A stretch of DNA of 64,000 nt from Antedon mediterranea (lineage: Eukaryota; Animalia; Echinodermata). Shown here piece after piece: positions 1-64,000 of the stretch (position 1 is its first letter; each line of letters begins with the position of its first letter). Under the pieces are notes generated by a model, which did no database searches, had not been told where the DNA came from, and worked only from the letters and a program-made list of their open reading frames with translations. The translations under genes were made by a program, and so were the position numbers. The stretch covers positions 18,352,001-18,416,000 of the forward strand of contig NC_092671.1 of the NCBI RefSeq assembly GCF_964355755.1. Reading direction: 5' to 3'.

Positions 1-562
1 TAGCTTAGTTTCAAGGTATTTTTGTTAAATATTTTTCTGAGCTTGTTGCCGGCAGGAAAACAATCTTCTACTATAGCTAAAAACTTGTGGCCGATGTTGG
101 TTGCTACGTTTTTGCTGAATGGTGGGTTAAACCAAATTATGTTTCTGGTGCGTGATTTTTTGGGCTTCTGCTGTTCAGCATTGAACTCAAGTTGATGATT
201 GTATCCACTTTCTTTGAGGGCTTCCTGGTATAGGGGTGCAGATGCATGAAATGTATCTTTGTCTGATGAGATGCCAGAAAGGCGTCTATTTATAGCAAGT
301 GGGATGTTTCGGATAATAGATGGAGGATGGTTGCTGTCATGGTGCACGTAGGTTGGTTTGTTATTAGGCTTAGTGAAAGGTTGGAAGATCCCTGTCCTTA
401 GGTCGAACGTTACATCCAAATAATTGACTATTTTCTTGTTAGCTTCAATTGTTAGCTTGAGGTTGTTCTCCTGGAAAATTTTACAAATATCTTTCTTGAT
501 TAGCTCAATCGTTTTGGCTGATTCGCGAAACGCGGCTAGGCCATCGTCGCGGTATAGACCAA
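1..562 (-). mobile_element. Inverted, 5'-truncated second copy of the Penelope-like element (continues off window)
   Basis: 1-562 is the reverse complement of about 1024-1584 with no differences noticed; joined head-to-head to the + copy at about 561-562. Confidence 0.92.
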
Positions 563-2123
563 CCCGACATGTAGATTAATCAACCCATCGAAATCAGAAA
601 TCGGCATCGTAAGTAAACAAATCCTTGAAAGAATAAATAAGAAAATAATAGCGTCTACAGGATTAAATCAATGGAAGAACACTAATTCTGTTATCGAATG
701 GTATAAGAACATTCAAAACAAGGATAAGCACTCGTTTATTTGCTTCGACATAGTTGACTTCTACCCGTCAATAACCAGTGACCTACTTAAAAAAGCCCTT
801 GAATTCGCCTCCAAGTTTGAAGCAATCTCCGATGAAGAAACAAATATTATTATCCAAGCAAAAAAGTCACTCCTTTTCCATGATAACGCTACATGGTGCA
901 AAAAAGGAACTGAAAACCAACCTGTGTTTGACGTCACAATGGGAAGCTTTGATGGTGCTGAAACCTGTGAAATCGTAGGTACATATCTTTTGTCGCAACT
1001 GTCTAACAAATATGGCAACCAAATTGGTCTATACCGCGACGATGGCCTAGCCGCGTTTCGCGAATCAGCCAAAACGATTGAGCTAATCAAGAAAGATATT
1101 TGTAAAATTTTCCAGGAGAACAACCTCAAGCTAACAATTGAAGCTAACAAGAAAATAGTCAATTATTTGGATGTAACGTTCGACCTAAGGACAGGGATCT
1201 TCCAACCTTTCACTAAGCCTAATAACAAACCAACCTACGTGCACCATGACAGCAACCATCCTCCATCTATTATCCGAAACATCCCACTTGCTATAAATAG
1301 ACGCCTTTCTGGCATCTCATCAGACAAAGATACATTTCATGCATCTGCACCCCTATACCAGGAAGCCCTCAAAGAAAGTGGATACAATCATCAACTTGAG
1401 TTCAATGCTGAACAGCAGAAGCCCAAAAAATCACGCACCAGAAACATAATTTGGTTTAACCCACCATTCAGCAAAAACGTAGCAACCAACATCGGCCACA
1501 AGTTTTTAGCTATAGTAGAAGATTGTTTTCCTGCCGGCAACAAGCTCAGAAAAATATTTAACAAAAATACCTTGAAACTAAGCTATAGTTGCATGCCCAG
1601 CGTAGACAAAGTAATTAACGCACACAACAAATATGTGATAGCCAAAGAAAAGCCTACTGAAACCAACGCGAAAACAAGCGGATGTAACTGCCGCAATCCC
1701 AATGAATGCCCGCTCCCAGGTAACTGCCTAACAAAAGGTGTAGTTTACCAAGCTACAGTAAAGAGAGAAGATTCATCAAAAGAAGAAACATATGTCGGAC
1801 TAACTGAAAACCAGTTTAAAACTAGATACAGAAACCATACGTCTTCATTCCGGAACGAAAAATTAAGAAGTGCAACGGAACTCAGTAAATATATATGGAC
1901 ACTTAAAGACTCTAAAACAAATTACTCAATTAAATGGAAAATTATAAAGAAATGCAAACCTTACTCAAATATTAACAAAAGATGTAATTTATGTATATAT
2001 GAAAAGTATGTTATTATATGTCAACCAGAGCTATGCTCACTGAACCGTAAGAACGAGTTAGTCTCTACTTGTAGACATAGGAAAAAATTCTTACTAAATT
2101 GCAGATCCAAACAGTTTATCTAA
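561..2123 (+). CDS. Penelope-like RT-endonuclease ORF (N-terminally truncated; frame open from 561, upstream of the listed 924 start)
   Basis: Manual translation 561-923 ([15 protein letters not shown]...NQPV) is stop-free and in frame with ORF 924-2123. Confidence 0.85.
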
Positions 2124-2207
2124 AACAATAGGCTATTGTATACGACTTCCCGATGACTCACTTCTATTAAGCACTATGAGACAACTGTGTCACTTATGTT
2201 TTATATT

Positions 2208-2263
2208 TCACCTGAAGAGTGCAGCCAGCTACATGCTGGTCGTACGAAACAAATTTGTAGTGA
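2208..2263 (+). ncRNA. Type I hammerhead ribozyme in Penelope 3' UTR
   Basis: TCAC-CTGAAGA-(GTGC..GCCAGC TACAT GCTGGT..GTAC)-GAAA-CAAATTTG-TA-GTGA: full core, stems I-III, palindromic stem III, GUA cleavage triplet. Confidence 0.88.
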
Positions 2264-2303
2264 TTAAAACAATGAAGTAACCAAGTTTTCTGCTGTTATT
2301 TTA

Positions 2304-2364
<61 letters not shown>

Positions 2365-2472
2365 CATACTGTAAATTATAGAAACAGTGCTCATATTCGG
2401 AACATGATCTCATAATCGCGTCGAGCATAGCTCATTGGCGAAAGTTCCATATTTTTTAGTTGTATGAAAAAA

Positions 2473-2544
2473 TGTCTCTGGCTGGATTCGAACCTGCAAC
2501 CTCTCGCTTACAGGGCGAGTATCATACCACTAGACCACAGAGCC
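2473..2544 (-). tRNA. tRNA-like (pseudo) core, tRNA-Pro-like body with TGT anticodon
   Basis: 72-nt cloverleaf, A box TGGTCTAGTGG, B box GGTTCGAATCC, followed by T6; mismatches in acceptor and T stems, C at position 33. Confidence 0.65.
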
Positions 2545-2862
2545 ATGTTCGAATCCAGCCAGAGACATTTTTTCATACAACTAAAAAATATGGAAATTTC
2601 GCCAATGAGCTATGCTCGACGCGATTATGAGATCATGTTCCGAATATGAGCACTGTTTCTATAATTTACAGTATGATTTATATATAATTTACACAGTGCT
2701 ACGCAACATCATTGATTTACATATACACAATATTATTTAAAAAACCGTTGCGAATTAAAGTTGGAATTTATTCTGACTTGTTAAGCCTCCACTGATTGTG
2801 AGGGCGTTTGTTGTATGAGAGAATGTATCTGGTGGGTGAAAATCTGTGATAATACCATACAT

Positions 2863-2934
2863 GGCTCTGTGGTCTAGGGGTATGATACTCGCCCTGTAAG
2901 CGAGAAGTTGCAGGTTCGAATCCAGCCAGAGACA
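2863..2934 (+). tRNA. tRNA-like (pseudo) core, TGT anticodon
   Basis: Same 72-nt cloverleaf; anticodon arm CTCGC-CCTGTAA-GCGAG; T6 terminator directly after. Confidence 0.65.
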
Positions 2935-3229
2935 TTTTTTCATACAACTAAAAAATATGGAACTTTCGCCAATGAGCTATGCTCGACGCGATTATGAGAT
3001 CATGTTCCGAATATGAGCACTGTTTCTATAATTTACAGTATGATTTATATATAATTTACACAGTGCTACGCAACATCATTGATTTACATATACACAATAT
3101 TATTTAAAAAACCGTTGCGAATTAAAGTTGGAATTTATTCTGACTTGTTAAGCCTCCACTGATTGTGAGGGCGTTTGTTGTATGAGAGAATGTATCTGGT
3201 GGGTGAAAATCTGTGATAATACCATACAT

Positions 3230-3301
3230 GGCTCTGTGGTCTAGGGGTATGATACTCGCCCTGTAAGCGAGAAGTTGCAGGTTCGAATCCAGCCAGAGAC
3301 A
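3230..3301 (+). tRNA. tRNA-like (pseudo) core, TGT anticodon
   Basis: Copy 2 of the array core. Confidence 0.65.
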
Positions 3302-3596
3302 TTTTTTCATACAACTAAAAAATATGGAACTTTCGCCAATGAGCTATGCTCGACGCGATTATGAGATCATGTTCCGAATATGAGCACTGTTTCTATAATT
3401 TACAGTATGATTTATATATAATTTACACAGTGCTACGCAACATCATTGATTTACATATACACAATATTATTTAAAAAACCGTTGCGAATTAAAGTTGGAA
3501 TTTATTCTGACTTGTTAAGCCTCCACTGATTGCGAGGGCGTTTGTTGTATGAGAGAATGTATCTGGTGGGTGAAAATCTGTGATAATACCATACAT

Positions 3597-3668
3597 GGCT
3601 CTGTGGTCTAGTGGTATGATACTCGCCCTGTAAGCGAGAGGTTGCAGGTTCGAATCCAGCCAGAGACA
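3597..3668 (+). tRNA. tRNA-like (pseudo) core, TGT anticodon
   Basis: Copy 3 of the array core. Confidence 0.65.
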
Positions 3669-3963
3669 TTTTTTCATACAACTAAAAAATATGGAACTTT
3701 CGCCAATGAGCTATGCTCGACGCGATTATGAGATCATGTTCCGAATATGAGCACTGTTTCTATAATTTACAGTATGATTTATATATAATTTACACAGTGC
3801 TACGCAACATCATTGATTTACATATACACAATATTATTTAAAAAACCGTTGCGAATTAAAGTTGGAATTTATTCTGACTTGTTAAGCCTCCACTGATTGT
3901 GAGGGCGTTTGTTGTATGAGAGAATGTATCTGGTGGGTGAAAATCTGTGATAATACCATACAT

Positions 3964-4035
3964 GGCTCTGTGGTCTAGTGGTATGATACTTGCCCTGTAA
4001 GCGAGAGGTTGCAGGTTCGAATCCAGCCAGAGACA
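3964..4035 (+). tRNA. tRNA-like (pseudo) core, TGT anticodon
   Basis: Copy 4 of the array core. Confidence 0.65.
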
Positions 4036-4182
4036 TTTTTTCATACAACTAACAAATATGGAACTTTCGCCAATGAGCTATGCTCGACGCGATTATGAGA
4101 TCATGTTCCGAATATGAGCACTGTTTCTATAATTTACAGTATGATTTATATATAATTTACACAGTGCTACGCAACATCATTG

Positions 4183-4240
<58 letters not shown>

Positions 4241-4302
4241 AAATCAGGCAAAGAACATATATATCATAATATTATATATAATAATATACAATGCCAACAT
4301 AC

Positions 4303-4483
4303 CGTAACACTTAAAGCCATCTCCCTGCAATCCGCTGGGGCAGTCTGCACATGTTGCATTTACTTCTGGAGCAAGGTTGTCCTGGCAAATGACCCCAGGG
4401 TGGCACGGTTCATCCATACATGCATCGTAATCAATAGAACAATCAAATCCTGTCCACGCAGCTGAACAGATACATTGCACAAC
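4303..4483 (-). CDS. Exon 22: EGF domains
   Basis: CICSAAWTGFDCSIDYDACMDEPCHPGVIC...CPSGLQGDGFKC; 181 nt; the following intron runs off the window. Confidence 0.88.
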
Positions 4484-25400: not shown

Positions 25401-28400
25401 TAGTTGAGGGCTCTGTAGTTGAGGGCTCTGTAGTTGATGGCTCAGTAGTCGATGGCTCAGTAGTCGATGGCTCTGTTGTTGATGGTTCAGTAGTTGATGG
25501 TTCAGTAGTTGAGGGCTCTGTAGTTGATGGCTCTGTTGTTGATGGTTTAGTAGTAGATCCTTCAGTAGTTGATGGCTCAGTAGTAGATTGTTCAGCAGTT
25601 GAGGGCTTTGTCATTGATGGTTCTGTAGTAAATGGTTCAGTAGATGAGGATTCAGTAGTCGATGGCTCAGTAGTTGAGAGCTCTGTAGTTGAGGGCTCTG
25701 TAGTTGATGGCTCAGTAGTTGAGGGCTCAGTAGTTGAGTGCTCTGTTGTTGATGGTTCAGTAGTTGATGGTTCAGTAGTTGAGGGCTCTGTTGTTGAGGG
25801 CTCTGTTGTTGATGGCTCAGTAGTTGATGGCTCAGTAGTTGAGGGCTCAGTAGTTGAGGGCTCAGTAGTTGAGGGCTCGGTAGTTGAGGGCTCAGTAGTT
25901 GAGGGCTCAGTAGTTGAGGACTCAGTTGTTGAGGGCTCTGTAGTTGATGGCTCTGTAGTTGATGGCTCTGTAGTTGATGGCTCTGTAGTTGATGGCTCTG
26001 TAGTAGATCCTTCAGTAGTTGATGGCTCAGTAGTTGATGGCTCAGTAGTAGATTGTTCAGTAGTTGAGGGCTCTGTCGTTGATGGTTCTGTAGTAGATAG
26101 TTCAGTAGTTGAGGATTCAGTAGTCGGTGGCTCTGTAGTAGACGGCTCTGTAGTTGATGGCTCAGTAGTTGATGGCTCAGTAGTTGAGGGTTCAGTAGTT
26201 GAGGGCTCTGTAGTTGATGGTTCAGTAGTAGATGGTTCAGTAGTCGATGGCTCTGTAGTAGACGGCTCTGTTGTTGATGACTCTGTGGTTGATGGCTCAG
26301 TAGTTGAGGGCTCTGTTGTTGATGGTTTAGTAGTAGATCCTTCAGTAGTTGATGGCTCAGTAGTTGATGGCTCATTAGTTGAGTGCTCTGTTGTTGATGG
26401 TTCAGTAGTTGATGGTTCAGTAGTTGAGGGCTCTGTTGTTGATGGTTTAGTAGTAGATCCTTCAGTAGTTGATGGCTCAGTAGTAGATTGTTCAGTAGTT
26501 GAGGGCTCTGTCGTTGATGGTTCTGTAGTAGATGGTTCAGTAGATGAGGATTTAGTAGTCGGTGTCTCTGTAGTAGACGGCTCTGTAGTTGAGGGTTCAG
26601 TAGTTGAGGGCTCTGTAGTCGATGGTTCAGTAGTTGAGGGCTCTGTCGTTGATGGTTCAGTAGTAGAAGGTTCAGTAGTAGATGGTTCAGTAGTCGATGG
26701 CGCTGTAGTAGACGGCTCTGTTGTTGATGACTCTGTGGTCGATGGCTCAGTAGTTGAGGGCTCTGTTGTTGATGATTTAGTAGTAGATCCTTCAGTAGTT
26801 GATGGCTCAGTAGTCGATGGCTCAGTAGTCGATTGTTCAGTAGTTGATTGTTCAGTAGTTGAGGATTCAGTAGTTGAGGATTCAGTAGTCGGTGGCTCTG
26901 TAGTAGACGGCTCTGTAGTTGATGGCTCAGTAGTTGAGGGTTCAGTAGTTGAGAGCTCTGTAGTTGATGGTTCAGTAGTTGAGGGCTCTGTCGTTGATGG
27001 TTCAGTAGTAGATGGTTCAGTAGTCGATGGCTCTGTAGTAGACGGCTCTGTTGTTGATGACTCTGTGGTTGATGGCTCAGTAGTTGAGGATTCAGTAGTC
27101 AAGGGCTCTGTAGTAGACGGCTCTGTAGTTGATGGCTCAGTAGTTGAGGGCTCTGTAGTTGATGGTTCAGTAGTTGAGGGCTCTGTCGTCGATGGCTCTG
27201 TAGTAGACGGCTCTGTTGTTGACGGCTCTGTCGTCGATGGCTCTGTAGTAGACGGCTCTGTTGTTGACGGCTCTGTAGTTGACGGCTCAGTAGTTGACGG
27301 CTCAGTAGTTGACGGCTCAGTAGTTGACGGCTCAGTAGTTGATGGCTCTGTAGTTGATGGCTCAGTAGTTGATGGTTCAGTAGTAGATGGCTCTGTCGTT
27401 GATGGTTCAGTAGTAGATGGTTCAGTAGTAGATGGTTCAGTAGTCGATGGCTCTGTAGTAGACGGCTCTGTTGTTGATGACTCTGTGGTTGATGGCTCAG
27501 TAGTTGATGGCTCAGTAGTTGATGGCTCAGTAGTTGATGGCTCAGTAGTAGATGGTTCAGTAGTTGAGAGATGTGTCGTCGATTGTTCAGTAGTAGATGG
27601 TTTAGTAGTTGAGGGTTCAGTAGTCGATCGCTCTGTAGTAGACGGCTCTGTTGTTGATAGCTTTGTGGTTAATGGCTCAGTAGTTGAGGGCTCTGTAGTT
27701 GATGGCTCTGTAGTTGATGGCTCAGTAGTTGAGGGCTCTGTAGTTGATGGTTCAGTAGTTGATGGCTCTGTAGTTGATGGCTCAGTAGTTGAGGGTTCAG
27801 TTGTTGAGGGCTCTGTAGTTGATGGCTCTGTAGTTGATGGCTCCGTTGTTGATAGTTCAGTGGTAGATCTTTCTGTAGTTGATGGCTCAGTAGTTGATGG
27901 CTCAGTAGTAGATTGTTCAGTAGTTGAGGGCTCTGTCGTTGATGGTTCTGTAGTAGATGGTTCAGTTGTTGAGGGTTCAGTAGTCGATGGCTCTGTAGTA
28001 GACGGCTCATTTGTTGATAGCTCTGTGGTTGATTGCTCAGTAGTTGATTGCTCAGTAGTTGAGGGGTCTGTTGTTGATAGCTTTGTGGTTAATGGCTCAG
28101 TAGTTGAGGGCTCTGTAGTTGATGGCTCTGTAGTTGATGGCTCTGTAGTTGATGGCTCAGTAGTTGAGGGCTCTGTAGTTGATGGTTCAGTAGTTGAGGG
28201 CTCAGTAGTTGATTGCTCAGTAGTTGAGGGGTCTGTTGTTGATAGCTTTATGGTTAATGGCTCAGTAGTTGAGGGCTCTGTAGTTGATGGCTCTGTAGTT
28301 GATGGCTCAGTAGTTGAGGGCTCTGTAGTTGATTGTTCAGTAGTTAAGGGCTCTGTAGTTGATGGCTCAGTAGTTGAGGGCTCAGTAGTTGAGGGCTCCG

Positions 28401-31400
28401 TTGTTGATGGTTCAGTGGTAGATCTTTCCGTAGTTGATGGCTCAGTAGTTGATGGCTCAGTAGTAGACTGTTCAGTAGTTGAGGGCTCTGTCGTTGATGG
28501 TTCTGTAGTAGATGGTTCTGTAGTAGATGGTTCTGTAGTAGATGGTTCTGTAGTAGATGGTTCAGTTGTTGAGGGTTCAGTAGTCGATGGCTCTGTAGTA
28601 GACGGCTCATTTGTTGATAGCTCTGTGGTTGATAGCTCTGTGGTTGATTGCTCAGTAGTTGATTGCTCAGTAGTTGAGGGCTCTGTAGTTGAGGGCTCAG
28701 TAGTTGAGGGCTCTGTTGTTGATGGTTCAGTAGTTGATTGTTCAGTAGTTGAAGGCTCAGTAGTAGATTGTTCAGTAGTTGAAGGCTCAGTAGTTGATGA
28801 CTCAGTAGTTGAAGGCTCAGTAGTTGATGACTCAGTAGTTGATGGCTCAGTAGTTGATGGCTCAGTAGTTGATGGCTCAGTAGTTGATGGCTCAGTAGTT
28901 GATGGCTCTGTTGTTGATGGCTCTGTTGTTGATGGCTCTGTTGTTGATGGCTCTGTTGTTGATGGCTCTGTTGTTGATGGTTCAGTAGTTGATGGCTCTG
29001 TAGTTGATGGCTCTGTAGTATATGGCTCTGTAGTAGATGGTTCAGTAGTTGAGGGTTCTGTAGTAGATGGTTCTGGAGGAACAATCGCTGAACCTGGATT
29101 TGAAATTTTAAGATAAAATGAATTAATAATTATGATATCTCTTTAGTATAGAGTTAAAAGTGAATCAGTTGGTTTAAAAATCATTAGTTTGATGTTTTGA
29201 ATTGTAGTAGTTGTGTCAAGAGATGTAACACAAACAATTAGGATTGGTACTAATAACTAATTAAATTTTCAACAGCGACAGCAACAATAATGATTATAAA
29301 TGGATATTTAATTCTTTGTTCCTTCCACAAAATGGTCTTTTGGACAGGTTGAGACCATGCATTATTGGAAGTAGAGATTTATATACAATTGAATTATGCA
29401 CAACTATTATCAATTTATAAATAAAAGATCACAAAATGTGCCTGAATTTAAACTTTCGTACTACTCTATACATACTAATACCAGTCTTGTTTATAATCAA
29501 TTCATATTTGAAAAAATGCGAGTTGGCATGCCGTATTTTTCATCTTTGGCATGCCTGGCATACCCACGTTTACAATATAGATGATAATCCCCGTGGTAAT
29601 TATAGCGACCTCTATGTCTGATGTACTGTATGGTATTTTTGTGCATCCCAATGTGTAACAGTTACAATGCAAAAAGAATTAGCCGTGTGAGACTTGACAT
29701 GAATAAAACCATTTTTGAGTGGTCACTTAGGGCTACAGTCTCGGGCAACTTACAGGATAAAGTTGCTGTCATTGCTGTTTTAACATTATATACACATGCG
29801 GACAATATCCAACAACTTTTATCCGTGTTGCTTTTCACATGATTAAATCCATTTTTTACCCCTCCTATTTGGTGTCCCCAGGGAAAATGTACAGGTCTGA
29901 TATGACCCGACAGCAATATTGATTATTGAATCTTAGTTATATATCTACATAATCAGCCCATCAAACCTTTTGTGGCTTTTCACATGAACAAACTTTCTGG
30001 GCGCCCTGTCTATTATGAAAAAAACAAAAGTGGGTCAAACCTAACCAAAAAAAAAAAGAAACAACATTAACTATTATCTTGAGCCTAACTATTAGGGGAG
30101 GAGGGGGAGATACACTATTTGAAAATAGGCGAAATATATTGATTTAATCCCAGATTGAATTAGAAGAAACAAATAATTTTTTGAACCAGGGAAGGGTACT
30201 CTTCATTAAAGGATCGTTCACATTTGTTCCGGTAAAAAAAATCGAACGTCAATTTTTCGTTTTCACGAAACTCCACACGACAATGTGATTACATTTTTTT
30301 TTTTTTTTTTTTTTTTTTAAATGCGCCTTGAGCACTCTTGAGTGGTATGTGCGCTTTAAAAATCCTGTTATTATTATTATTATTACACGCGTGAAAACGA
30401 AACATTGACGTTCGATTTGCCGGCGCCGGACCCGTGCCGGAACAGGTGTGAAAGACCCTTGATGATAGAACCGAAAATAAAACGTTGTATATTAGAAATT
30501 TATGATTATCATCAAACGAAAAAAGGAGAACTAATTATTCACTCCCTAAAAAAATTGAATATGTCATTTTAATGTCGCATAATAATTATTCACTTCAACC
30601 AAAAACTGGATCGAAAAAAAAATTATTTTCCTGAAAGAAATGTAATTTAAATCAAACAATATCTAAATTGTCTGTCAGACAATGGTTTTTGGTTGAAATT
30701 AACATATTCTTTTGGTTTTTTTTTTATAAGTGGAATTATAATAATTTTTTCTACAGACGTGAATAACTTGATTAAAACAAAATGGGCTATTCAAGGTCTG
30801 ATTTTCAGGGTTATTGGGACAATAGACCTACATCTTCAAGGAAATAAATAGGGTATACTGTATTAACTTGTGAACGCGAAAGGAAAGCATGGTGGATTGA
30901 AAGAGACCTTTTGAAGATTATTGTCCTCAAAAACATGAAAACTGAAGATTAATAAAATCAGACTTTGAATAGGTAATTTTTCATTAAGGATAAGGGTTGA
31001 TTTCCCGCATGATCGTAAATAAAACGGTACTGGGTTTCGTCTAATAGCGTTCTTGCTCTCAAATAGTCATGCATACATAGAAGTACTGATGAAAATAGGA
31101 TATACGATGTTTGATTATAATTATAGATACTAGAGGGTTCGCTCGCTTCGCTCGCGCACCCTCTACTGGGTGTACCCGAATGGTTCTCGAAAACATGACC
31201 AACGCCTCTGGAAATTGAAGCCCGGGTGACACCTATGCATATGACTGATGAGTGATGCATGTTTATTTTGTGATGTTTTGCACCTAAATTTTATTAAAAG
31301 ATTAATAAATAGAATAAATAATTAGTTCAATTAGCCTCCTACAGTAACATTGAATCGCACCTAAATTTGATAAAATGATTAATAAATAGCATAAATAATT

Positions 31401-33531
31401 AGTTCAATTACTGATCAAATTTAATTTCACGTAAAGTAAAGGCCTTTATAATTAATTAGTTGAATATCTAGGCTAAAACAAATAAATTGTAGTTCACGAT
31501 TCAGTTGAATCACTAAAATCACATTATAGTTCACGTAAAAGTAAGGCCTTCAATAAAAGTTAAATTACTAAAACAAATTGTAGTTGACGTAAAGTATATG
31601 TCTTTAATCAATATAACTGATTAGTTGAATATCTAAAACAAATTAATTTCAGTAGTTCACGATACGTTGAACCACTAAAATATTTTTGTGTTTAATATTG
31701 AATGGCGCCACCAACGGCCATTTTGCCGGAAGTGACGGACCCGAAAGTCAGTTGAACAACAGCGCGAGTGTGTGAAAATAACCATGTGATATCCACAAAT
31801 TTTGATAGGTAACGCTAACATTTTTTTTTAGACAAAAATGGAACAATAGCGTCGATGTGAAAACTAATGTTATCAAATCTACGTTTCGCGGTACATCTGA
31901 GATAGATAAGGTAGGTATCCAAGGCGGAGTTTTTGCATTGTGCTCGCCTATGTCAGAATTAACCATAATTTGTATATAGATGCGACTATATTTAAATGAT
32001 GTTCCGCATATTATAGATAGGAAGATGATGATGGTGGTTGGATGAAATGATCTTGTATATCGATTAAGACCGTCATGTGATAAATTGGTTAATCCATTAT
32101 TTTATATATATTTAATTGTTGTTATGATTATAATATTAATAAAAAAATAGAAGAAGACTATCCCCGATGATAATGCAGCATATGGGTCTGGGGTGGATGA
32201 GGCTAGTCTAGATTTTGAAGATAGGTCTTTAGGCTACTTTTTTAGCACTTAATTTTTAAATTATTAGGCTCTGGGCCTGTGTTAATTTCTAAATCAAAAT
32301 GATTCGAAAACATTATGTTGCTCAAAGTAATTGCTGACGATTTCTATAACTCAGTGAAAAATATAAATTCAATGGAAAATTACTGAAAAAAATGACAGTG
32401 CTGTAAACATTTTGTTTATGGCGTCAGAAATTTACAATTTACACAGGCGAGCGTGAACGGTAATAAAAATATAGATTGTTATTCCTTATGACCATTTTAC
32501 ACACAACAACAACGCGTCGGGCGTTTCTCATACAGACAAGCTACGCGGTTTTCCGCTTCTCCTCATATGTGTAAATTGGCAAAATTTACAAACATCAATT
32601 TGGGAATTCACAGTAATAGGTATATCAAATCGCAGGTTTTCTAAATATTGTTGTTCGGCACAATTACGTAGGTTGAAAAAAAATTAGTTTACTTGTTTGT
32701 CGCAAAAAATACTTTGTAGGTACAGGTTCATCATGTTAGTGCAATATTTGCCGCTTCGATTTTGGCTAGAACGGTATGGCTAGTTGTGGTATCGGTAGAA
32801 TCGGGTTCAACCAGTGAAGTACCAATAATTAAAAGATAATTTGATATTTTTGGAGGAAATGATGATCCTAGATGAAACCTACAAAAAATGGACGATATAA
32901 TGAACTAATTACATTTAAATTTACATTAATATCAGTTTGGTTTTGGTTACATGATGTAAAAATAAAACCTATTTATCGATTTATATAATTTTTGGATGTG
33001 GTGATTCATTTATTTTGACACAAAGGCAAATTGTTTTACTTTTACGAACTATTTTAAAACCATTGAAAGAAGAAAAAAATATTTGTGATATTAATGATTA
33101 TAAGCCAGTTTTGTGCGTTGGCATACAGTAGGCCTACTATAATTCTCATGAATTAGTTTTTAACACGCCCATGACTAATTAATTTTAAGCGTATTCAGAT
33201 AATTTACAATTAGGCTATACAAAGGCAATCCTGGTTAAAGATGTATTGTCGTACGCACCCCCCCCCCCCCCTCCCTAAAATAAAGATTAATAAAATCAGA
33301 CTTTAAATAGGCCATTTTGCAGTTTTAATAAAGTTGTTCACTTCTGTAATCCCCCAAATTTACAAGTGTAAACGTAATAAAACTCCTTTGCCTATTTTTA
33401 AGAATTACATGTTGTGCCGCATACCCCGAAGAATAAAACAACATCGCTTTCTTCAAAAACTTACCTTGTCTTAATATCATAAACAGTAAAAGGAGTTTAA
33501 TAAATCTTCCTAAAATGTATTTAATTCCCAT
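4303..33531 (-). CDS. MUC4-like giant mucin gene (signal peptide, PSTTE mucin, 2 LDLa, 2 Sushi, 2 Ca-EGF, NIDO, AMOP, VWD, EGFs); 22 exons in window, 3' end off window
   Basis: All exons below have AG acceptors and GT (one GC) donors with compatible phases; total 12,619 nt (about 4,206 codons). NIDO-AMOP-VWD-EGF order and WLFGDPH match the MUC4/SUSD2/Mesh family. Confidence 0.88.
4600..4700 (-). mobile_element. 3' fragment of the Neptune-like Penelope family, with truncated hammerhead
   Basis: Reverse complement matches about 54927-55010 (GAAGGGCTAGTGTTGCCCGAAA...) but lacks CTGA; next to a TA tract. Confidence 0.75.
5245..5426 (-). CDS. Exon 21: Ig-like end and EGF start
   Basis: GLFTWTP...VSDG...LCGCVNGGQC; 182 nt. 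Confidence 0.85.
6046..6170 (-). mobile_element. Extreme 3' end of the same Neptune-like family between TA tracts
   Basis: Reverse complement matches about 54958-55082. Confidence 0.8.
6190..6378 (-). CDS. Exon 20: cadherin/Ig-like segment
   Basis: NIPPVL...LQVSASDEKDDILTY; 189 nt. Confidence 0.8.
6828..7085 (-). CDS. Exon 19: post-VWD Cys region
   Basis: ESAFVYPDGQSF...CEGNKECLFDALAT; 258 nt. Confidence 0.87.
7354..7467 (-). CDS. Exon 18: VWD end
   Basis: GVWNGLLSDE...TESEIFDYAITW; 114 nt. Confidence 0.85.
7601..7716 (+). mobile_element. Degenerate tRNA-derived SINE-like element with short terminal inverted repeat GGAGTGGAGTTGT
   Basis: A-box-like TGGCTTGTGG, B-box-like GGTTGAAGTC; second copy on the minus strand at 34879-35404. 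Confidence 0.6.
7949..8140 (-). CDS. Exon 17: VWD
   Basis: ...DEKYKTQTSGLFG; 192 nt. Confidence 0.85.
8395..8851. repeat. 23-bp AT-rich minisatellite (ACTTATAAAAACAAATTAAAAAT)n
   Basis: About 20 copies directly abutting the exon 16 donor. Confidence 0.9.
8855..8942 (-). CDS. Exon 16: VWD
   Basis: VQFTLNADGTDIEILVNG; 88 nt, phase 0-1. Confidence 0.8.
9235..9443 (-). CDS. Exon 15: VWD start with GDPH motif
   Basis: AWLFGDPHITTLDGLGYTFNGKGEF; 209 nt. Confidence 0.92.
10007..10126 (-). CDS. Exon 14: AMOP end
   Basis: DIMPQYYCCYES...CGLYFERRPAVTCDNYIPP; 120 nt. Confidence 0.88.
10199..10340. mobile_element. MITE (PIF/Harbinger-like)
   Basis: TIR AGCTCTGTCTACACTATCAAACT / AGTTTGATAGTGTGGACAGAGCT; flanks TTA and TTT. 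Confidence 0.75.
10708..12886 (+). mobile_element. Non-autonomous Helitron family A, copy 1
   Basis: A|TCTATATA 5' end, 3' hairpin then CTAG|T; both ends shared with 47479-48799. Confidence 0.82.
12049..12794. mobile_element. Foldback non-autonomous DNA transposon (IS3EU-like) nested in Helitron A
   Basis: About 230-bp TIRs starting TACGG and ending CCGTA; GAAATC duplicated on both sides; empty site TTTGAAATCG in Helitron copy 2 (about 48693). Confidence 0.8.
13173..13364 (-). CDS. Exon 13: AMOP
   Basis: YICLQS...GTECCYRLNG; 192 nt. Confidence 0.85.
13901..14417 (-). CDS. Exon 12: NIDO end and AMOP start
   Basis: RNTFQAILLTDGQYSFAMF...GNTGRKG...CITWY...CPC; 517 nt. Confidence 0.9.
14667..14834 (-). 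CDS. Exon 11: NIDO
   Basis: EYTTD...SFSPTWVLKVTWVDI; 168 nt. Confidence 0.87.
15100..15264 (-). CDS. Exon 10: NIDO
   Basis: FTENGIFV...ISVFWTDGDLSSDIGNVFFR; 165 nt. Confidence 0.87.
15561..15700 (-). CDS. Exon 9: NIDO-region start
   Basis: EILYYPSGIENGDEEL...FGFPYGHNFLPIVY; phase 1-0. Confidence 0.85.
15732..16340. repeat. 20-bp minisatellite (TCGCTGCAATACCATTGTGC)n followed by a 24-bp repeat (CATGTACATAAATTGTACATAAAT)
   Basis: Direct inspection; fills most of the GC-AG intron. Confidence 0.9.
16364..16486 (-). CDS. Exon 8: calcium-binding EGF, ending at a GC donor
   Basis: DIDECEELTFDCFNNSYCENTEGSYNCICNDGYEGDGTFCA; donor CAG|GCAAGT; 123 nt. Confidence 0.85.
16937..17065 (-). CDS. Exon 7: calcium-binding EGF
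   Basis: DIDECLADTFTCPDRSTCSNTIGSYICNCNTGY; 129 nt. Confidence 0.9.
17251..17433 (-). CDS. Exon 6: Sushi/CCP domain
   Basis: NCENPADFENGEW...CDTGYIL...CLSG...C; 183 nt, phase 1-1. Confidence 0.85.
18495..18677 (-). CDS. Exon 5: Sushi/CCP domain (not in ORF track)
   Basis: SCAAPQTLAFG...YECYSGRTLEGNSTLICQDG...PSCL; 183 nt, phase 1-1. Confidence 0.85.
19048..19170 (-). CDS. Exon 4: LDL-receptor class A repeat
   Basis: PCNTTELRCDNALCIDKSLFCDDNINDCPDNYDE; 123 nt, phase 1-1. Confidence 0.88.
19285..19413 (-). CDS. Exon 3: LDL-receptor class A repeat
   Basis: CFNTFKACPGAGKCIPEDAFCDKVQDCDDYLDENEAAC; 129 nt, phase 1-1. Confidence 0.88.
20127..29093 (-). CDS. Exon 2: 8,967-bp mucin (PSTTE)n exon
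   Basis: Acceptor AAATCCAG|GT at 29094, donor TCAG|GTAATC at 20126; length divisible by 3; in frame with ORF 20083-27102; 15-bp repeat. Confidence 0.9.
30208..30460. mobile_element. MITE with a LINE/SINE-type 3' tail fragment inside
   Basis: Imperfect TIR AAGGATCGTTCACATTTGTTCCGG / CCGGAACAGGTGTGAAAGACCCTT; inner poly-T then GCGCCTTGAGCAC...(TTA)n. Confidence 0.6.
31130..31980 (-). mobile_element. Non-autonomous Helitron family B (complete)
   Basis: Minus strand A|TCTATATAC...GCGCGAGCGAAGCGAGCG hairpin...CTAG|T; internal AT-rich repeats; 5' part repeated at 44030-44382. Confidence 0.8.
33465..33531 (-). CDS. Exon 1: start codon and signal peptide
   Basis: MGIKYILGRFIKLLLLFMILRQ then G|GTAAGT (phase 1); splices to GSA-IVPPEPSTTE, giving a plausible signal peptide cleavage site. 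Confidence 0.75.
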
Positions 33532-34148: not shown

Positions 34149-34209
<61 letters not shown>

Positions 34210-34336
34210 TACAAAGCACGCTCGTTGAGCTTGCTGTGCACCCTTTGTGTTCATAATCAGTGTACATGTCCCGCATACCTGGCTCAGCCTATATTGTTGT
34301 GCCAGTTCTGCGGTACATATCATTTCAAAACATGAG

Positions 34337-34381
34337 CTGCACTGACGAGATCTAATAAGATCGAAACAGTACTGTCTGCAG
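34337..34381 (+). ncRNA. Type I hammerhead ribozyme
   Basis: CTGCA-CTGACGA-GATCT AATA AGATC-GAAA-CAGTACTG-TC-TGCAG; perfect core, GUC site. Confidence 0.92.
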
Positions 34382-34621
34382 ATTGGATATTACGATCCTC
34401 TACTTTCTGTTATATACATATGTAGTATGTTGTTTTGTAGAGCACTCTTTAGTTCGAAACGGTGCATTTTTGTTGTGAATACTATTAGCATTTTGCAAAG
34501 CACGCCCGTTGAGCTTGTGCACTCTTTGTGTTCATAACAGTGTACGGTACCATGTCCCGCATACCTGGCTCAGCCTATATATTGTGCCAGTTCTGCGGTA
34601 CATTTCATTTCGAAACCTGAG

Positions 34622-34666
34622 CTGCACTGACGAGATCTAATAAGATCGAAACAGTACTGTCTGCAG
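34622..34666 (+). ncRNA. Type I hammerhead ribozyme (second copy)
   Basis: Identical to 34337-34381. Confidence 0.92.
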
Positions 34667-34669
34667 ATT

Positions 34670-34739
<70 letters not shown>

Positions 34740-41133: not shown

Positions 41134-41206
41134 GTTCTCGGGTGGGACTCGAACCCACGACCTCCAGATCACTAGCCAGGCGTTCATACCTCTAGACCAC
41201 GGAGCT
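41134..41206 (-). tRNA. Degenerate tRNA-like core (AGT anticodon) of a solo element
   Basis: A box TGGTCTAGAGG, perfect T arm GTGGG-TTCGAGT-CCCAC, weak acceptor stem, T6 shortly downstream. Confidence 0.55.
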
Positions 41207-54120: not shown

Positions 54121-55082
54121 TATATTCTCCAGTCCACAGAACGTCTCAGGACTGTTTTTCCGGAACCACCCATTATTGCATTTCGTAGACCTCCCAACCT
54201 TCGTGATATATTAGTCAGATCCAAATTTAAGAGTGAAATTAACTCTCATGACAGCCAAAATTTGGGCAGTCACCTTTGCGGCAAATCTTGCAAAACTTGT
54301 TCATTGGTTGATTCTACTGAAAAATTTGAGAGTAACCAAACTGGCGGCATTTTTCGGATAAGACAATCAATTAATTGTCTAACCAAAAACGTCATTTATC
54401 TCATATACTGTAATATTTGTGGCAAACAGTACGTCGGAGAAACAAAAAACACTCTCCGTATGAGAATGACACAACATAGATCAGCTATCAAAACATTAAA
54501 GCTTGATCAACTTGTATCCGAACATTTTAATTCAGCTGGTCACTCGATTGCAAATTTCAGAGTTATTGCAATAGACCACGATGTCAAATGGAGCGACAAA
54601 ACTCGCAAAGACAAAGAAAACCACTGGGAATTACTACTTAAAACCACAAAACCTTTTGGACTTAACATTAGGAACATACTCCCAGATCGGTAAAATTATT
54701 CCATTGACTACCAACATTTAAGTTTCAATATTAACCACCATTTAAGCTGTTTTTTAGTCTCATTCCAAAATTGTTTATATCTCTACCAAGCTACCTTCTT
54801 TGTTTTCCACTCTTATTCAGACTCCACCCTGGCTCCCTTTGTTATATTTCTTTTATTCATGTCCACCCAGGCAGCACTTGCCAGCTTTATACTATGGCGT
54901 TATCCAAATTCCTTCACTTGCACTGATGAAGGGCTAGTGTTGCCCGAAAGCTCTGCTAACTTTTCTGGCTGTTTACTTTATCGTTTTGATTTAGCTTTTC
55001 GCTTTTTATTTTTGTATCTCCATTGAGATCCAGCCACTGATACCCACAGCATTGTCATTTTTCTCAGTAATTTGCCTTTGGA
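54121..55082 (+). mobile_element. Neptune-like Penelope element, 3' fragment (GIY-YIG)
   Basis: PIIAFRRPPNLRDILV, CGKSCKTC linker, NVIYLIYCNICGKQYVGET, VSEHF, PFGLN; hammerhead in 3' UTR; ends in TA. Confidence 0.88.
54920..54956 (+). ncRNA. Minimal type I hammerhead ribozyme
   Basis: GCA-CTGATGA-A-GGGC TAGTGTT GCCC-GAAA-GC-TC-TGC; loop-less palindromic stem III as in Penelope minimal hammerheads. Confidence 0.8.
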
Positions 55083-57180
55083 TATATATATATATTTATA
55101 TATATACAGGTATATATATAAACACAGTAGGCAAAGAACATTAATTCTGAACCGCCCGGTGATATACTGAAATTTAATTAATTAATTTGAAACGATAAAG
55201 ATGAGGAAATCTGTGAGAATGAGAAAAAGTCGCCCCAACCGAGACCCGAACTCGGACCGCCTGCTTGATATGCAGTTGCCCTAACCATTAGACCACTGGT
55301 CTAACCACATGGTATTGTTCAAACTCGATTGTATAGCGACTCTTTAACACTCTCGGCGTGGTACGGCGGAACAGCAATAGTCCTCAGTTGTACACACGCG
55401 CAACAGAGATCAAATTGATACGCCCTCATCTTACAGTATTTTTATTCACGAGGCGGGATCTCCGAAGAGATACTTTTATATATATAACCACAGTAGGCAA
55501 AGAACATTAATTCTGAACCGCCGGTGATATACTGAAATTTAATTAATTAATTTGAAACGATAAAGATGAGGAAATCTGTGAGAATGAGAAAAAGTCGCCC
55601 CAACCGAGACTCGAACTCGGACCGCCTGCTTGATATGCAGTTGCTCTAACCATTAGACCACTGGGGCTTTCATGGTATTGTTCAATCTCGATTGTATAGC
55701 GACTCTTTAACACTCTCGGCGTGGTACGGCGGAACAGCACTAGTCCTCAGTTGTACACACGCGCAACAGAGATCAAATTGATACGCCCTCATCTTACAGT
55801 ATTTTTATTCACGAGGCGGGATCTCCGAAGAGATACTTTTATATATATAAACACAGTAGGCAAAGAACATTAATTCTGAACCGCCCGGTGATATATTGAA
55901 ATTTAATTAATTAATTTGAAACGATAAAGATGAGGAAATCTGTGAGAATGAGAAAAAGTCGCTCCAACCGAGACTCGAACTCGGACCGCCTGCTTGATAT
56001 GCAGTTGCCCTAACCATTAGACGACTGGGGCTTTCATGGTATTGTTCAAACTCGATTGTATAGCGACTCTTTAACACTCTCGGCGTGGTACGGCGGAACA
56101 GCACTAGACCTCAGTTGTACACACGCGCAACAGAGATCAAATTGATACGCCCTCATCTTACAGTATTTTTATTCACAAGGCGGGATCTCCGAAGAGATAC
56201 TTTTATATATATAAACACAGTAGGCAAAGAAAATTAATTCTGAACCACCCGGTGATATACTGAAATTTAATTAATTAATTTGAAACGATAAAGATGAGGA
56301 AATTTGTGAGAATGAGAAAAAGTCGCCCCAACCGAGACTCGAACTCGGACCGCCTGCTTGATATGCAGTTGCCCTAACCATTAGACCACTGGGGCTTTCA
56401 TGGTATTGTTCAAACTCGATTGTATAGCGACTCTTTAACACTCTCGGCGTGGTACGGCGGAACAGCACTAGACCTCAGTTGTACACACGCGCAACAGAGA
56501 TCAAATTGATACGCCCTCATCTTACAGTATTTTTATTCACAAGGCGGGATCTCCGAAGAGATACTTTTATATATATAAACACAGTAGGCAAAGAAAATTA
56601 ATTCTGAACCACCCGGTGATATACTGAAATTTAATTAATTAATTTGAAACGATAAAGATGAGGAAATTTGTGAGAATGAGAAAAAGTCGCCCCAACCGAG
56701 ACTCGAACTCGGACCGCCTGCTTGATATGCAGTTGCCCTAACCATTAGACCACTGGGGCTTTCATGGTATTGTTCAAACTCGATTGTATAGCGACTCTTT
56801 AACACTCTCGGCGTGGTACGACGGAACAGCACTAGTCCTCAGTTGTACACACGCGCAACAGAGATCAAATTGATACGCCCTCATCTTACAGTATTTTTAT
56901 TCACGAGGCGGGATCTCCGAAGAGATACTTTTATATATATAACCACAGTAGGCAAAGAACATTAATTCTGAACCGCCGGTGATATACTGAAATTTAATTA
57001 ATTAATTTGAAACGATAAAGATGAGGAAATCTGTGAGAATGAGAAAAAGTCGCCCCAACCGAGACTCGAACTCGGACCGCCTGCTAATCTAAATACAATC
57101 GAGTTTGAACAATACCATGAAAGCCCTAGTGGTCTAATTGTTAGGGCAACTGTCTCGGTTGGGGCGACTTTTTCTCATTC

Positions 57181-60100: not shown

Positions 60101-61671
60101 TTTTAACTGAACAGTTGGAAAATGTAAAACAATGGTTAGATAAACATAAATTAACTCTAAACATTGATAAAACCAAATACATGCTTTTTGGTACTCATGC
60201 ACGTGTTAATAAAACAACAGATGAAACAGCAATTCCGATTGAGAAAGTTGAAACGTTTAAATATTTGGGACTTACATTTGATGAACAACTCTCATGGAAA
60301 GTACATATTGATTCTATATGTGCAAAACTATCAAAAATTCTACATCTATTTTATAGATTGAAAAGTTTTACATCTCCTAAAATTATTAAAAGATTATACA
60401 ATGCTCTATTTTTATCACATATTGACTATTGTTCAACAGTCTGGGGTACTGGTTCAAACGCCCATATTTTAAAATTGCAAAGGGTACAAAATAGAGCTGC
60501 ACGATTAATACTAGGTGCTGATATTCGAACTCCTGTTAGACAAATGCATTATGATTTAGGTTGGCTAACAATTAAGACAAGAATTGAATATCATACAATT
60601 TGTACAATATTTAGATGTTTACAAGAATCTGTACCTTCATACTTATGTAATGTTTTGCAATATATTAGTAGTGTACACAATATTCAAACCAGAAACTATG
60701 AAAACAATCTGTTGTATTTGCCCAGATGTAACCTCGAAATATACAAACGTAGTTTTGTTTATTATGGAAGTTCACTCTGGAATGGCCTACCTTATGAATT
60801 AAGAAAACAAAACAATTATAACCGTTTTAAATCACTTGTTAAGATTCATTTATTGTTGCCGGTGGTCTAGGATGGTTCCAGTGAAATATATTTAAATATG
60901 GTATAAAAGTATAATAATAATGAGAACATGCATTGAAGTTTAGTTTTAGTTTAAGTTTTAGTTTAAGTTTAGTTTAAGTTGTTTTCAAATTTTGTTTAAA
61001 TGTGCCGTAGGGCCCCTCGGAAGAGCAGTTTTATTTCATTACTGAAAGGGCTACCCTACTAAAAGAAAACGAAATAAATAAATAAATAAATCAAATGATT
61101 GAAGACAAGAAATTATTTATTAAAGAATTTAAATTACGACTGATTGATTTAGAAAAACAAAAATATTTTGAACAATTTTCTTTACATTCAAAACTAAAAT
61201 ATTTTAAGTATTTTAAAACGAAAATTGAAATAAGTTATCATTTGTTACACTTAAAAGATTGGAAACGTAAAAATATATTCACAAAATTTTGTTTAGGAGT
61301 GTTAGATTTGGAAATAGAAAAAGGAAGATGGAACAAAATCCCACTTCAAAACCGTTTATGTAAATTATGCAATATGAATTCTATTGATGACGAATTTCAT
61401 TTTATGTTAGTCTGTCCATATTATTCCGAACTCAGAAACTTATATATTCCTAATTTTTATCACACGTTCCCTTGTTTAAATAAGTTTTATTTTTTAATGT
61501 GCAACACTAGAGTAGTCCAAGATTTAGCAAATTTTGTTTATTTAGCTTACGAAAATAGAAAATATTATTTTGCAACCCAACAAGAAAATATTATTGTATG
61601 ATTTGTATGTAAGATATAAGGGCCAGAGGCCTAAATATTGTGGAAATAAAACCCCGTTAGGGGAACGAACG
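57181..61671 (+). mobile_element. RTE-X-like LINE, 5'-truncated within the APE domain, with stops and frameshifts; split by a nested LINE
   Basis: GNSVCDY..SYHMP, KSPGMDG, NYRGIAL, QAGFRKG, FIDLKRAFDS, QGSPLSSLLF, LLYADD; WYKQ rejoins MIEDK across the insertion; zinc finger; tail AACGAACG. Confidence 0.85.
59428..61091 (+). mobile_element. L2/Crack-like (CR1 group) LINE nested in the RTE-X element; RT frame intact to 60870
   Basis: NYRPISV, QSGFR, FLDLKKAFDTVDH, GVPQGSILGPLLF, YADD; 3' stem GTAGGG...CCCTAC and (AAAT)n; CAAA on both sides. Confidence 0.88.
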
Positions 61672-62006
61672 ATATCAAGCAGGCGGTCCGAGTTCGAGTC
61701 TCGGTTGGGGCGACTTTTTCTCATTCTCACAGATTTCCTCATCTTTATCGTTTCAAATTAATTAATTAAATTTCAGTGTATCACCGGGCGGTTCAGAATT
61801 AATGTTCTTTGCCTACTGTGTTTATATATATATATAAGTATCTCTTCGGAGATCCCGCCTCGTGAATAAAAATACTGTAAGATGAGGGCGTATCAATTTG
61901 ATCTCTGTTGCGCGTGTGTACAACTGAGGACTAGTGCTGTTCCGCCGTACCACGCCGAGAGTGTTAAAGAGTCGCTATACAATCGAGTTTGAACAATACC
62001 ATGAAA

Positions 62007-62078
62007 GCCCCAGTGGTCTAATGGTTAGGGCAACTGCATATCAAGCAGGCAGTCCGAGTTCGAGTCTCGGTTGGGGCG
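62007..62078 (+). tRNA. tRNA-like core (tRNA-Arg-like 5' half, ATC in anticodon position); representative of array 2
   Basis: GCCCCAG/TTGGGGC acceptor, perfect T arm CCGAG-TTCGAGT-CTCGG, then ACTTTTT; atypical anticodon loop ATATCAA. Confidence 0.65.
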
Positions 62079-62120
62079 ACTTTTTCTCATTCTCACAGAT
62101 TTCCTCATCTTTATCGTTTC

Positions 62121-62169
<49 letters not shown>

Positions 62170-64000
62170 ACCAAACAAAAGTAAGAATAACAATGAATAG
62201 TTATTATTATTATTAGAAATAATTGTATTAATCTGTTGATGAAATGAAATGAATAAATAGTGGTTAACGCCACAAAAGAGAAAAAAAAAACTTAATCATT
62301 ATTAGTTCAGGATTTGTGAGATTTTAAGAATTGTAATCAAGACGATTTTTTAGTAACCTACCGGACTCACGAGTTGTTCCGAGCATTGCCCATTCGAATG
62401 ATGTAGGCCTATTATAGCCTCTCGTTAAAAGTTGGTGTGCTATTAGGAAAGATGTATTGTCCCCCAGAAATTTTTTTTTTTCTTTTTAAAACAACAAAAT
62501 AACCTATTCAAAGTCTGATTTAATTAATCTTCATTTTTTTTGGTGGGGGGGGGGGGGGAAATACTTCTTTAAACAATTATTGAATGAATAAATTTCCTTC
62601 AACTCACGAAACATGTCTTGATTTAAGATAGCACAGTAGTGAAGTGACGTGGATTTAAATACGTCAACTTGTCGTAAACATTTTGAATTCAATTTAAAAA
62701 CGTGCAAGGTTTTTATAATTTGGCATTGATAAACAACATGAAGCAGTGTTCTTTCCCATTTGTCAGTTATATTTAGGCCTACGTCTGCGCCACTTAAATA
62801 TGTGAATAACTTTTAAATTGTTGGTTAAAAACAAAGGACTCGAACACGTCTTTCTTGTTGACCAGTACCTGCATCAATGAAGACTTTTAACAGCTTTATT
62901 TTCTTGACTTATTTCTCTCCCAAGTACTCGTCGTCTAGGGTATAGATTGCTTACTGACTATATATTATAGGTCATTCCTTGTCTTAGATGTACGTTTTAT
63001 GGCAATTTATGATAAAAAGAGAGAAACAATGCACTATACCTAAGTAGCTCGCGGTGGAATGTCCTCTCGTGTACGCTCTTTAGGCCTAGCCAAGGGGCTT
63101 AGTTGTGTAGGCCTAGCTGGTAAACTAGTAACGTACGAACATCGTACGCTAGCTATAGGCCCATTAATTGTCTTTTGACAGAATCCGTATAGTAATACAG
63201 AATGTGGGAAACCCGGTATTTTCGCTGAATAGTTACGATTCTTCCATTTATTGTGGCCTTCATGGTTGATCAAAAGTACTAAAACTAAAATATCAATCCG
63301 CGCGCAATGTCAAAGACGAAAACAGTTATTGTAATAGAACCATATAGTATTTATTTTTACATTAAATGTAGTTTGTGACCTTAAATGAGAGCTAAAAAAC
63401 GTAGGGAATGGGACATTAACAGAAAATGAAGTTAGAGATTCATTAATTCATTAACCATTATTTAGGCCTACTTCAGCTTATTGTCAGATTATGCATGAAG
63501 ATATAATTCTTCCATACTGAAATTATTATATAGTTATATATACTTTATGCTCAAATTCCACCCCAATTGGTAACCTCATTTGCTAATTATCCATCTAAAG
63601 CCCTAGAAATAATATAAGTAAACTTTTCGTATAATAACCTAGGTAAACGTTTTGGATTGGTTTTTTTTTAATGAAAAGAACGCGTTCTATGGTCGTCGCG
63701 ATACACTATATAATGATGTATATCACCGCCGTGTGGTGGTGTCCTTTCTCATAGTGTTACATCATACTTTTAGAAATGTTACATACGTTGTTAGAAGTAC
63801 CTTTTGTCAGATGTTTTTGATAACATTCGAGTATACATAAGTAAGGGTGAAAATTTAACGTTAAACAGTTAAACCGAGAAGAACAATTTGCAGGCCACAT
63901 CTCCTTCTTTGGTAGATGGTAAGATAGATAGTATTGTATTTAGATAGATAATATATTCCTCGGAATTCTTTTATTGATAATAATTATTATAGTCTAATTT

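Follow-up and report, generated by a model that had tools for sequence, protein, structure and literature searches.

The locus described here raises the question of why a tRNA-like sequence that is repeated in tandem carries, shortly upstream of its body, a leader able to pair with that body. We analysed the window as a whole, a stretch of 64,000 nucleotides from Antedon mediterranea, which an intron-split gene with a very long Ser/Thr-repeat exon, LINE remnants and Penelope-like elements (PLE) mark as animal DNA. On the minus strand (20083-29142), an open frame of about 3000 codons made of a 15-bp Ser/Thr/Glu/Pro repeat is apparently a single exon of a mucin-like gene, downstream of which lie cysteine-rich exons. 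ARAGORN called ten tRNA-like genes in the window, and all ten lay within two tandem repeat families. The earlier note had taken 61840-62094 for array 2 of these repeats. Array 2 lies at 55111-57085 on the minus strand, and those coordinates fall in a separate copy of 1.25 units. The features of the two families are as follows.

2544..4193, plus strand: family-1 array, 4.5 units of 367 bp, with the same architecture as family 2; 3' end in (TA)26
2361..2548, minus strand: inverted family-1 arm, from tRNA position −3 to the TA run of the unit; ends in (TA)24
55111..57085, minus strand: array 2, the main family-2 array, 5.4 units of 364 bp
57093..57180, plus strand: two inverted family-2 pieces on the 5' side of array 2 (unit 151-210 and 238-266)
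61672-62126, plus strand: separate family-2 copy of 1.25 units
61672..61822, plus strand: 5'-truncated upstream unit of the separate copy, starting at tRNA position 32 (base 1 of the anticodon loop)
within 61672..61822, plus strand: contents of that upstream unit, namely a tRNA 3' half, a T5 run (61715-61719) and a trailer
61823..61836, plus strand: internal TA run, or TATA-like box, of the unit
61840..61853, plus strand: c(UUCG)g hairpin of 5 bp, in family 2 only
61879..61888, plus strand: arm of an outer helix, predicted to pair with 62102-62111
61957..61994, plus strand: anti-tRNA leader, predicted to form 33 pairs (6 G-U) with the T-loop, 3' acceptor strand, T-run and trailer
61995..62002, plus strand: AATACCAT motif at −12, the same in both families; predicted partner of the D-loop
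62007..62078, plus strand: tRNA-like body that has both A and B boxes and the anticodon loop ATATCAA (A32); called by ARAGORN, Rfam tRNA 50.5 bits
62081..62085, plus strand: T5 run, resembling a Pol III terminator, inside the leader helix
62086..62124, plus strand: trailer, leader-paired up to 62094; the copy ends in an AT-rich part of the unit
62125..62166, no strand: (TA)21 at the 3' end of the separate copy, its likely target site

The pairing of 61957-61994 with 62058-62094, proposed with about six G-U pairs, could be followed exactly. All quoted sequences were present at the coordinates given, and the predicted duplex has 33 pairs with exactly 6 G-U. With RNA parameters its energy was −44.7 kcal/mol for the tRNA-sense strand as against −25.4 for the opposite strand; it was stronger than the duplexes of 1000 out of 1000 shuffled leaders (best −36.4) and of 1356 out of 1356 background windows (best −39.8). 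The predicted sense-strand fold of 61840-62125 reached −91.9 (z −3.74; 1 of 200 shuffles as good), as against −73 for the antisense fold (z −0.72; 44 of 200 shuffles as good). The family-1 leader helix has 37 pairs, 7 of them G-U, so that the two families together place 13 G-U pairs on one strand, with one in each of the opposite-strand duplexes. In a single unit the leader helix was better than the cloverleaf by 15.5 and 27.2 kcal/mol, in energies that leave out tRNA tertiary contacts, and it leaves the anticodon stem free. Pairing of AATACCAT (61995-62002) with the D-loop ATGGT was found in the minimum-energy fold as well, through 5 pairs only (−4.4 kcal/mol). The UUCG hairpin said to open the unit is present at 61840-61853, and among 20000 shuffled versions of the unit 6 gave a 5-bp hairpin of this type; its place is not the true start of the unit but follows the internal TA run of the tandem. 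The hairpin is absent from array 1, and as a feature common to both families it was rejected.

Variants of both families were surveyed in contigs of four public assemblies, from three studies and under two organism labels; one of the four assemblies may be the window's own source. Family 2 was present on 1094-8978 contigs per run and family 1 on 146-1343. At cut-offs of 10% for family 2 and 5% for family 1, 5 of 19 and 3 of 22 variant rows, respectively, fell in helix arms. All eight keep or add a pair, a count that overstates independence because the variants are related by descent. The duplex gains 2-3 kcal/mol from four of them and is unaffected by three, and in the remaining one a G-C pair becomes G-U; of all single substitutions, only about 9-11% would strengthen it. 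Family-2 variants at 62030, 62033 and 62049 leave the D and anticodon stems of the cloverleaf intact or better paired. Since variants in the helix and in the cloverleaf stems alike preserve pairing, both folds appear constrained, and the leader helix appears to be maintained within a mobile tandem repeat. In the copies of the window itself, a pair is broken by one of the three changes that fall in the helix, and one pair between AATACCAT and the D-loop has been lost from two family-1 copies. Predicted folds, strand bias and variants thus support the proposed leader:tRNA helix as an RNA structure of the sense strand.

A plainer reading would make these repeats a pseudogene satellite or a tRNA-derived SINE that a LINE and unequal crossing-over had spread, with the leader as a functionless left-over of an inverted duplication. 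A neutral inverted copy would have drifted to A-C as often as to G-U, against the 13 G-U pairs seen on one strand, and both leader and spacing are retained across two families. Within one array, shared variants are spread over the units as a mosaic (m0=m4, m1=m2; a1=a2), which fits duplication at the DNA level, and both family-2 copies are flanked by LINE remnants. SINE tandems and palindromes are described in the accessible parts of reports on bivalves (PMC11481361) and reptiles (PMC10702118). The tRNA of the present units, however, sits in mid-unit before the terminator and has no fixed tail, and the three insertions in the window have variable ends and no target-site duplication, which is not the layout of a tRNA-SINE (SINE2). 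We regard this reading as unlikely.

Whether the pairing was maintained through deep divergence of the tRNA bodies or arose twice had been left as alternatives, and the position of AATACCAT and the matching spacings favour the former. The tRNA bodies of the two families are identical at 40 of 72 positions. Eleven tRNA positions are leader-paired in both families; 7 of these differ on both sides of the pair, 1 differs on one side and 3 are unchanged. AATACCAT is identical and stands at −12 in both families, and it makes 7 pairs with the D-loop of family 1 and 5 with that of family 2. This better fit to family 1 indicates that family 2 did not gain the motif by simply copying its own tRNA. The TATA-like run lies at −180/−184, and the units of 364 and 367 bp are 3 bp apart in length. 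From the matching layout, the pairs changed on both sides at 7 of 11 positions and the shared place of AATACCAT, we infer that the families descend from one origin; the case stops at inference because, between the two units, the middle parts now align no better than shuffles do. A short motif common to both middle parts was also not above shuffles and was discarded.

The bodies of the two families, which may be Arg-like and Pro-like, were named Asp(ATC) and Thr(TGT) from their anticodons by ARAGORN. Each unit carries A and B boxes, read from the sequence, and one T5 or T6 run directly 3' of the body, so that it is a tandem unit with a tRNA-like region and Pol III boxes, as in repeats of the PolIII/TAN type. 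On the plus strand, the T5 run at 62081-62085 is the sole run of at least four T in the unit of the separate copy. In one unit per family, none of the 8 and none of the 9 other runs of at least three T reaches T4 (P 0.11 and 0.076 against shuffles; true of 10% of background windows), and the hammerhead retrozyme of the window has four T4-reaching runs in 466 nt. The avoidance is not strict: two family-2 copies in the window carry a T4, and T4-making variants reach up to 10% at 61770 (family 2) and up to 32% by depth at 3473 (family 1). As a sign of Pol III read-through, the scarcity of T4 would be a modest signal. In addition to these units, the minus strand bears a third, solitary tRNA-like body at 41137-41205 (Rfam 30.1 bits), possibly an old third family; the 70 nt upstream of it show weak pairing with its T-arm and its trailer (−30.6 as against −21.6 antisense), and a duplex as good was seen in 11 of 1150 background windows and in 6 of 500 shuffles.

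These bodies might instead belong to host arrays of working tRNA genes, or of tRNA-like small-RNA genes, in which the leader would be an antisense control element. The ten full copies that ARAGORN called also score 44-52 bits with the Rfam tRNA model, their T5 or T6 runs follow the bodies directly, and some variants favour the cloverleaf. A canonical anticodon loop and intact stems are the yardstick for a functional tRNA gene, and neither family has both: family 2 has A32 with the anticodon ATC, and family 1 has C33 and stem mismatches. Thousands of variant contigs, and truncated and inverted copies in TA tracts, also argue against host genes, as does the point that a Pol III transcript begun at the body would lack its own leader. 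Such a role is thus highly improbable.

The ends of the three insertions are more informative about how the repeats spread. All three 3' ends lie in (TA)n, at AT-rich points within the unit, and the same 3' TA ends recur in other contigs. Many genomic family-2 copies end in (TA)n at the internal TA run (61823-61836), and loose ends behind 61836 were found on 37 and 34 contigs in two assemblies. Inverted 5' pieces accompany two of the three insertions. The repeats thus combine partial tandems, an inverted 5' piece and a microsatellite target, as PLE-dependent elements do. Of the six 5' junctions, five fall within the stretch from tRNA position −3 to 72 (binomial p 0.002, a post hoc value from three insertions), at 32, at 38, just past the T-loop A, at −3 and at 52. 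The inverted piece at 57152-57180 stops, as a single case, just past the T-loop A (standard position 58); methylated A58 would stop reverse transcription. The sequence 5' of array 2 and 5' of the separate copy is not TA but belongs to LINE remnants or adjoins them. A LINE-like tail is separated from the beginning of the separate copy by 21 nt with a small perfect hairpin (61651-61671). Short look-alikes of the family-2 3' end, in opposite orientation across TA tracts, were seen at 4228-4258 and 62167-62190 and may be PLE-type tails or tiny insertions.

Both main arrays adjoin the TA tail of a PLE in the window.

558..2313, plus strand: Hydra-like PLE, candidate partner type; ORF with reverse transcriptase and C-terminal GIY-YIG-type domains, CxCX5C linker, hammerhead core
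54262..55082, plus strand: 3' end of a second Penelope-like element, candidate partner type; GIY-YIG ORF, hammerhead core

The Hydra-like PLE shares its TA tail with array 1 and has an inverted 5' copy at 1-562. It spans 1-2313 with this copy, which is 562 bp long and 100% identical, and it has an open frame of 521 aa and a hammerhead core near 2212; from its sequence it looks recently inserted. Of 7993 scored candidates, 3578 were homologues. The second PLE has its TA tail in common with array 2, whose direct arm starts at tRNA position 38 and has its 3' end within that tail. Further 3'-end pieces of the second PLE lie on the minus strand at 4608-4700, 6049-6171 and 32370-32404, two of them adjoining TA runs. 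No sequence common to the units and the 3' ends of the two window PLEs, or the hammerhead retrozyme, was found, and for this reason a PLE partner is deduced from the insertion pattern only. The shared TA tracts may reflect mere use of a hotspot.

The retrozyme, on the plus strand at 34207-34672, has two type I hammerhead cores 285 bp apart between (TA)25 and (TA)31, a TA-flanked tandem layout like that of the copies with tRNA mimics. Rfam did not report its hammerheads at the gathering threshold. The present units, too, are tandem and non-coding and lack an LTR, a PBS (primer-binding site) and a PPT (polypurine tract), as non-LTR retrozymes do, but they have no type I hammerhead per unit. Our search recovered four control cores, from the two PLEs and the retrozyme, and found none in either array on either strand. 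Rfam scans of the units (the only search for twister) gave no ribozyme family, though they missed the control hammerheads too; an HDV-like pattern, used with no positive control, gave no match in the units. A Helenus-type or LTR identity was rejected, there being no purine tract of at least 10 on either strand, and sense CA..TGG sites in the units occur only in or at the tRNA body. A motif scan of metagenome contigs yielded 23 loci, none with this architecture on leader-duplex check and inspection; they were other SINE-like heads, ordinary tRNA-like genes and chance matches. The scan gave no locus in viral contigs, and the family-2 pattern gave none in prokaryote genomes.

The same ends bear on an origin at the DNA level, in which a rolling-circle or cut-and-paste element (Helitron- or MITE-like) would have a tandem core and the helix would act in single-stranded DNA. 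Tandem cores are common within non-autonomous DNA elements of marine invertebrates, and G-T pairs can form in DNA. With DNA parameters, however, the duplex gave −19.1 as against −14.8, a small strand asymmetry where RNA parameters gave a large one. The UUCG loop, the A and B boxes and the single T-run indicate RNA, and fixed termini or terminal inverted repeats were not found, the three insertions ending differently. We consider a DNA element very unlikely.

The explanation that we prefer, to which we would give about an even chance, is a non-coding tandem retroposon of about 365 bp with a tRNA-like Pol III promoter, copied in trans by a PLE into (TA)n, whose leader shields the read-through RNA. 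Its observed parts are the tandem units, the A and B boxes, one T-run per unit, the TA ends, the inverted 5' pieces and the high copy number; its sense-strand helix is predicted from the folds, and its transcription, masking and copying are proposed steps. Pol III would start at the tRNA body and read through the leaky T5 or T6 run into the next unit or units. The first tRNA, with no leader, could fold as a cloverleaf, and later tRNAs would be captured by the leader. An unmasked tRNA body would be cut by RNase P and RNase Z; covered over its tRNA 3' half and T-run, the RNA would likely escape such trimming and stay a full template. A TA-cutting PLE protein would then reverse-transcribe it from AU-rich points in the unit, and the outcome would be partial tandems with 5' inversions. 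Arrays may also grow through duplication at the DNA level. The available text on PLEs gives partial tandems, 5' inversions and a (TA)n bias as their signature (PMC8557442), and a purified PLE protein is described in part of another report as cutting both strands of AT-rich DNA and as starting reverse transcription inside the RNA, at a site without homology to the target (PMC11167929).

A more elaborate route would make the repeat a retrozyme that uses tRNA splicing. The leader would hide the inner halves of two tandem tRNA mimics in an RNA that spans tRNA n to the T-run after tRNA n+1, and the outer halves would form a pre-tRNA with a unit-length intron. TSEN would cut at 37/38, RtcB would close a rod-like circle of about 365 nt, and a Penelope-like reverse transcriptase would copy this circular template into (TA)n, host tRNA splicing thus replacing a ribozyme. 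The unconstrained fold of family 2 joins the 5' acceptor strand of tRNA n to the 3' strand of n+1 (five pairs have P 1.0, and two more have 0.92 and 0.52), with the inner 3' half taken by the leader; in family 1 that fold has no outer acceptor stem (P at most 0.05). The fold with joined outer halves was better than two cloverleaves in both families (−135.7 as against −119.1 in family 2, −121.5 as against −95.1 in family 1), but an alternative with only the downstream cloverleaf came within 0.5-2 kcal/mol in both. Circular units gave a fold z of about −4.5. The leader spares the anticodon stem, and the 5' starts of the array 2 direct arm and of the separate copy fall exactly at position 38 and at 32.

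The 32:35' pair that this route needs, between position 32 and the third-last base of the intron, can form in both families, as A32:U35' (within a self-complementary AUAU) and as C32:G35'. C32 together with G35 is, however, common among ordinary tRNAs, and a circle copied by rolling would not give the mosaic of variants in one array; given that mosaic, there is no support for single-circle rolling replication as the only origin of the arrays. Set against published TSEN preferences, each family falls short in one: family 2 has a weak A-U pair but a 4-bp helix, and family 1 has C-G but C33 and U34 unpaired. According to the accessible part of that work, less tricRNA is made when the proximal pair is A-U, and unpaired middle positions are inhibitory (PMC6614914). 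RNA of an animal retrozyme is circularised by RtcB in vitro, as a partly available report describes (PMC7229834). On balance we hold this route to be doubtful. If it were true, the repeat would be a natural mobile element that makes circular RNA through tRNA splicing. Two tandem tRNA mimics are not the source of known tricRNAs, which derive from single tRNA genes with an intron, and we know of none that serves as a mobile template; the TSEN cut, the RtcB ligation and the pair between position 32 and the intron are the steps of their production in the available text of PMC6614914.

Several known systems resemble these units in part. PolIII/TAN of newt (about 360 nt), OAX of Xenopus, Rana/polIII and Hy/polIII likewise are tandem units of similar size with a tRNA-like region. 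Secondary descriptions of these amphibian repeats, in the available text of PMC10702118 and PMC12054243, state that no matching SINE is known and call their origin unconfirmed; it is through these descriptions that the repeats were compared, and they mention no anti-tRNA leader, TA targeting or PLE link. Animal non-LTR retrozymes likewise have non-coding tandem units of a few hundred bases and highly self-paired predicted circles, and their dependence on, or origin from, PLEs has been proposed in the parts available of two reports (PMC7229834; bioRxiv 10.64898/2026.07.22.740005). The units described here differ from them in having a tRNA body with Pol III boxes in place of a hammerhead and in showing no similarity to PLE pLTRs. 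Sm-alpha of Schistosoma is also arranged in tandem, but has the hammerhead that these units lack. It is likewise a SINE-like repeat, large numbers of which score as tRNA, as far as the accessible text goes (PMC2770079). Helenus and Cassandra (TRIMp3) are likewise non-autonomous, with a Pol III promoter derived from a small RNA inside the repeat, and Cassandra RNA spans one 5S copy to the next, in the part of the report that was available (PMC10886601). In contrast to them, the present units have no LTR ends, purine tract or 4-5-bp duplication, and their cloverleaf can still form.

Tandem tRNA-like repeats as such are therefore already known from amphibians. In the literature searched, which covered the amphibian repeats through secondary descriptions, we found no description of an anti-tRNA leader in such repeats or of a mobile element that uses tRNA splicing. 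The two families could already be entries in Repbase or Dfam.

For tRNA annotation the consequence is direct, as every one of the ten ARAGORN calls in the window is a copy of one of these families, and such repeats inflate tRNA counts. If the preferred explanation is true, it would join the tRNA-containing tandem repeats of amphibians, known for decades, to the Penelope-dependent retrozymes, and it would mean that, in elements of this kind, the ribozyme can be replaced by a tRNA mimic that carries its own antisense mask.
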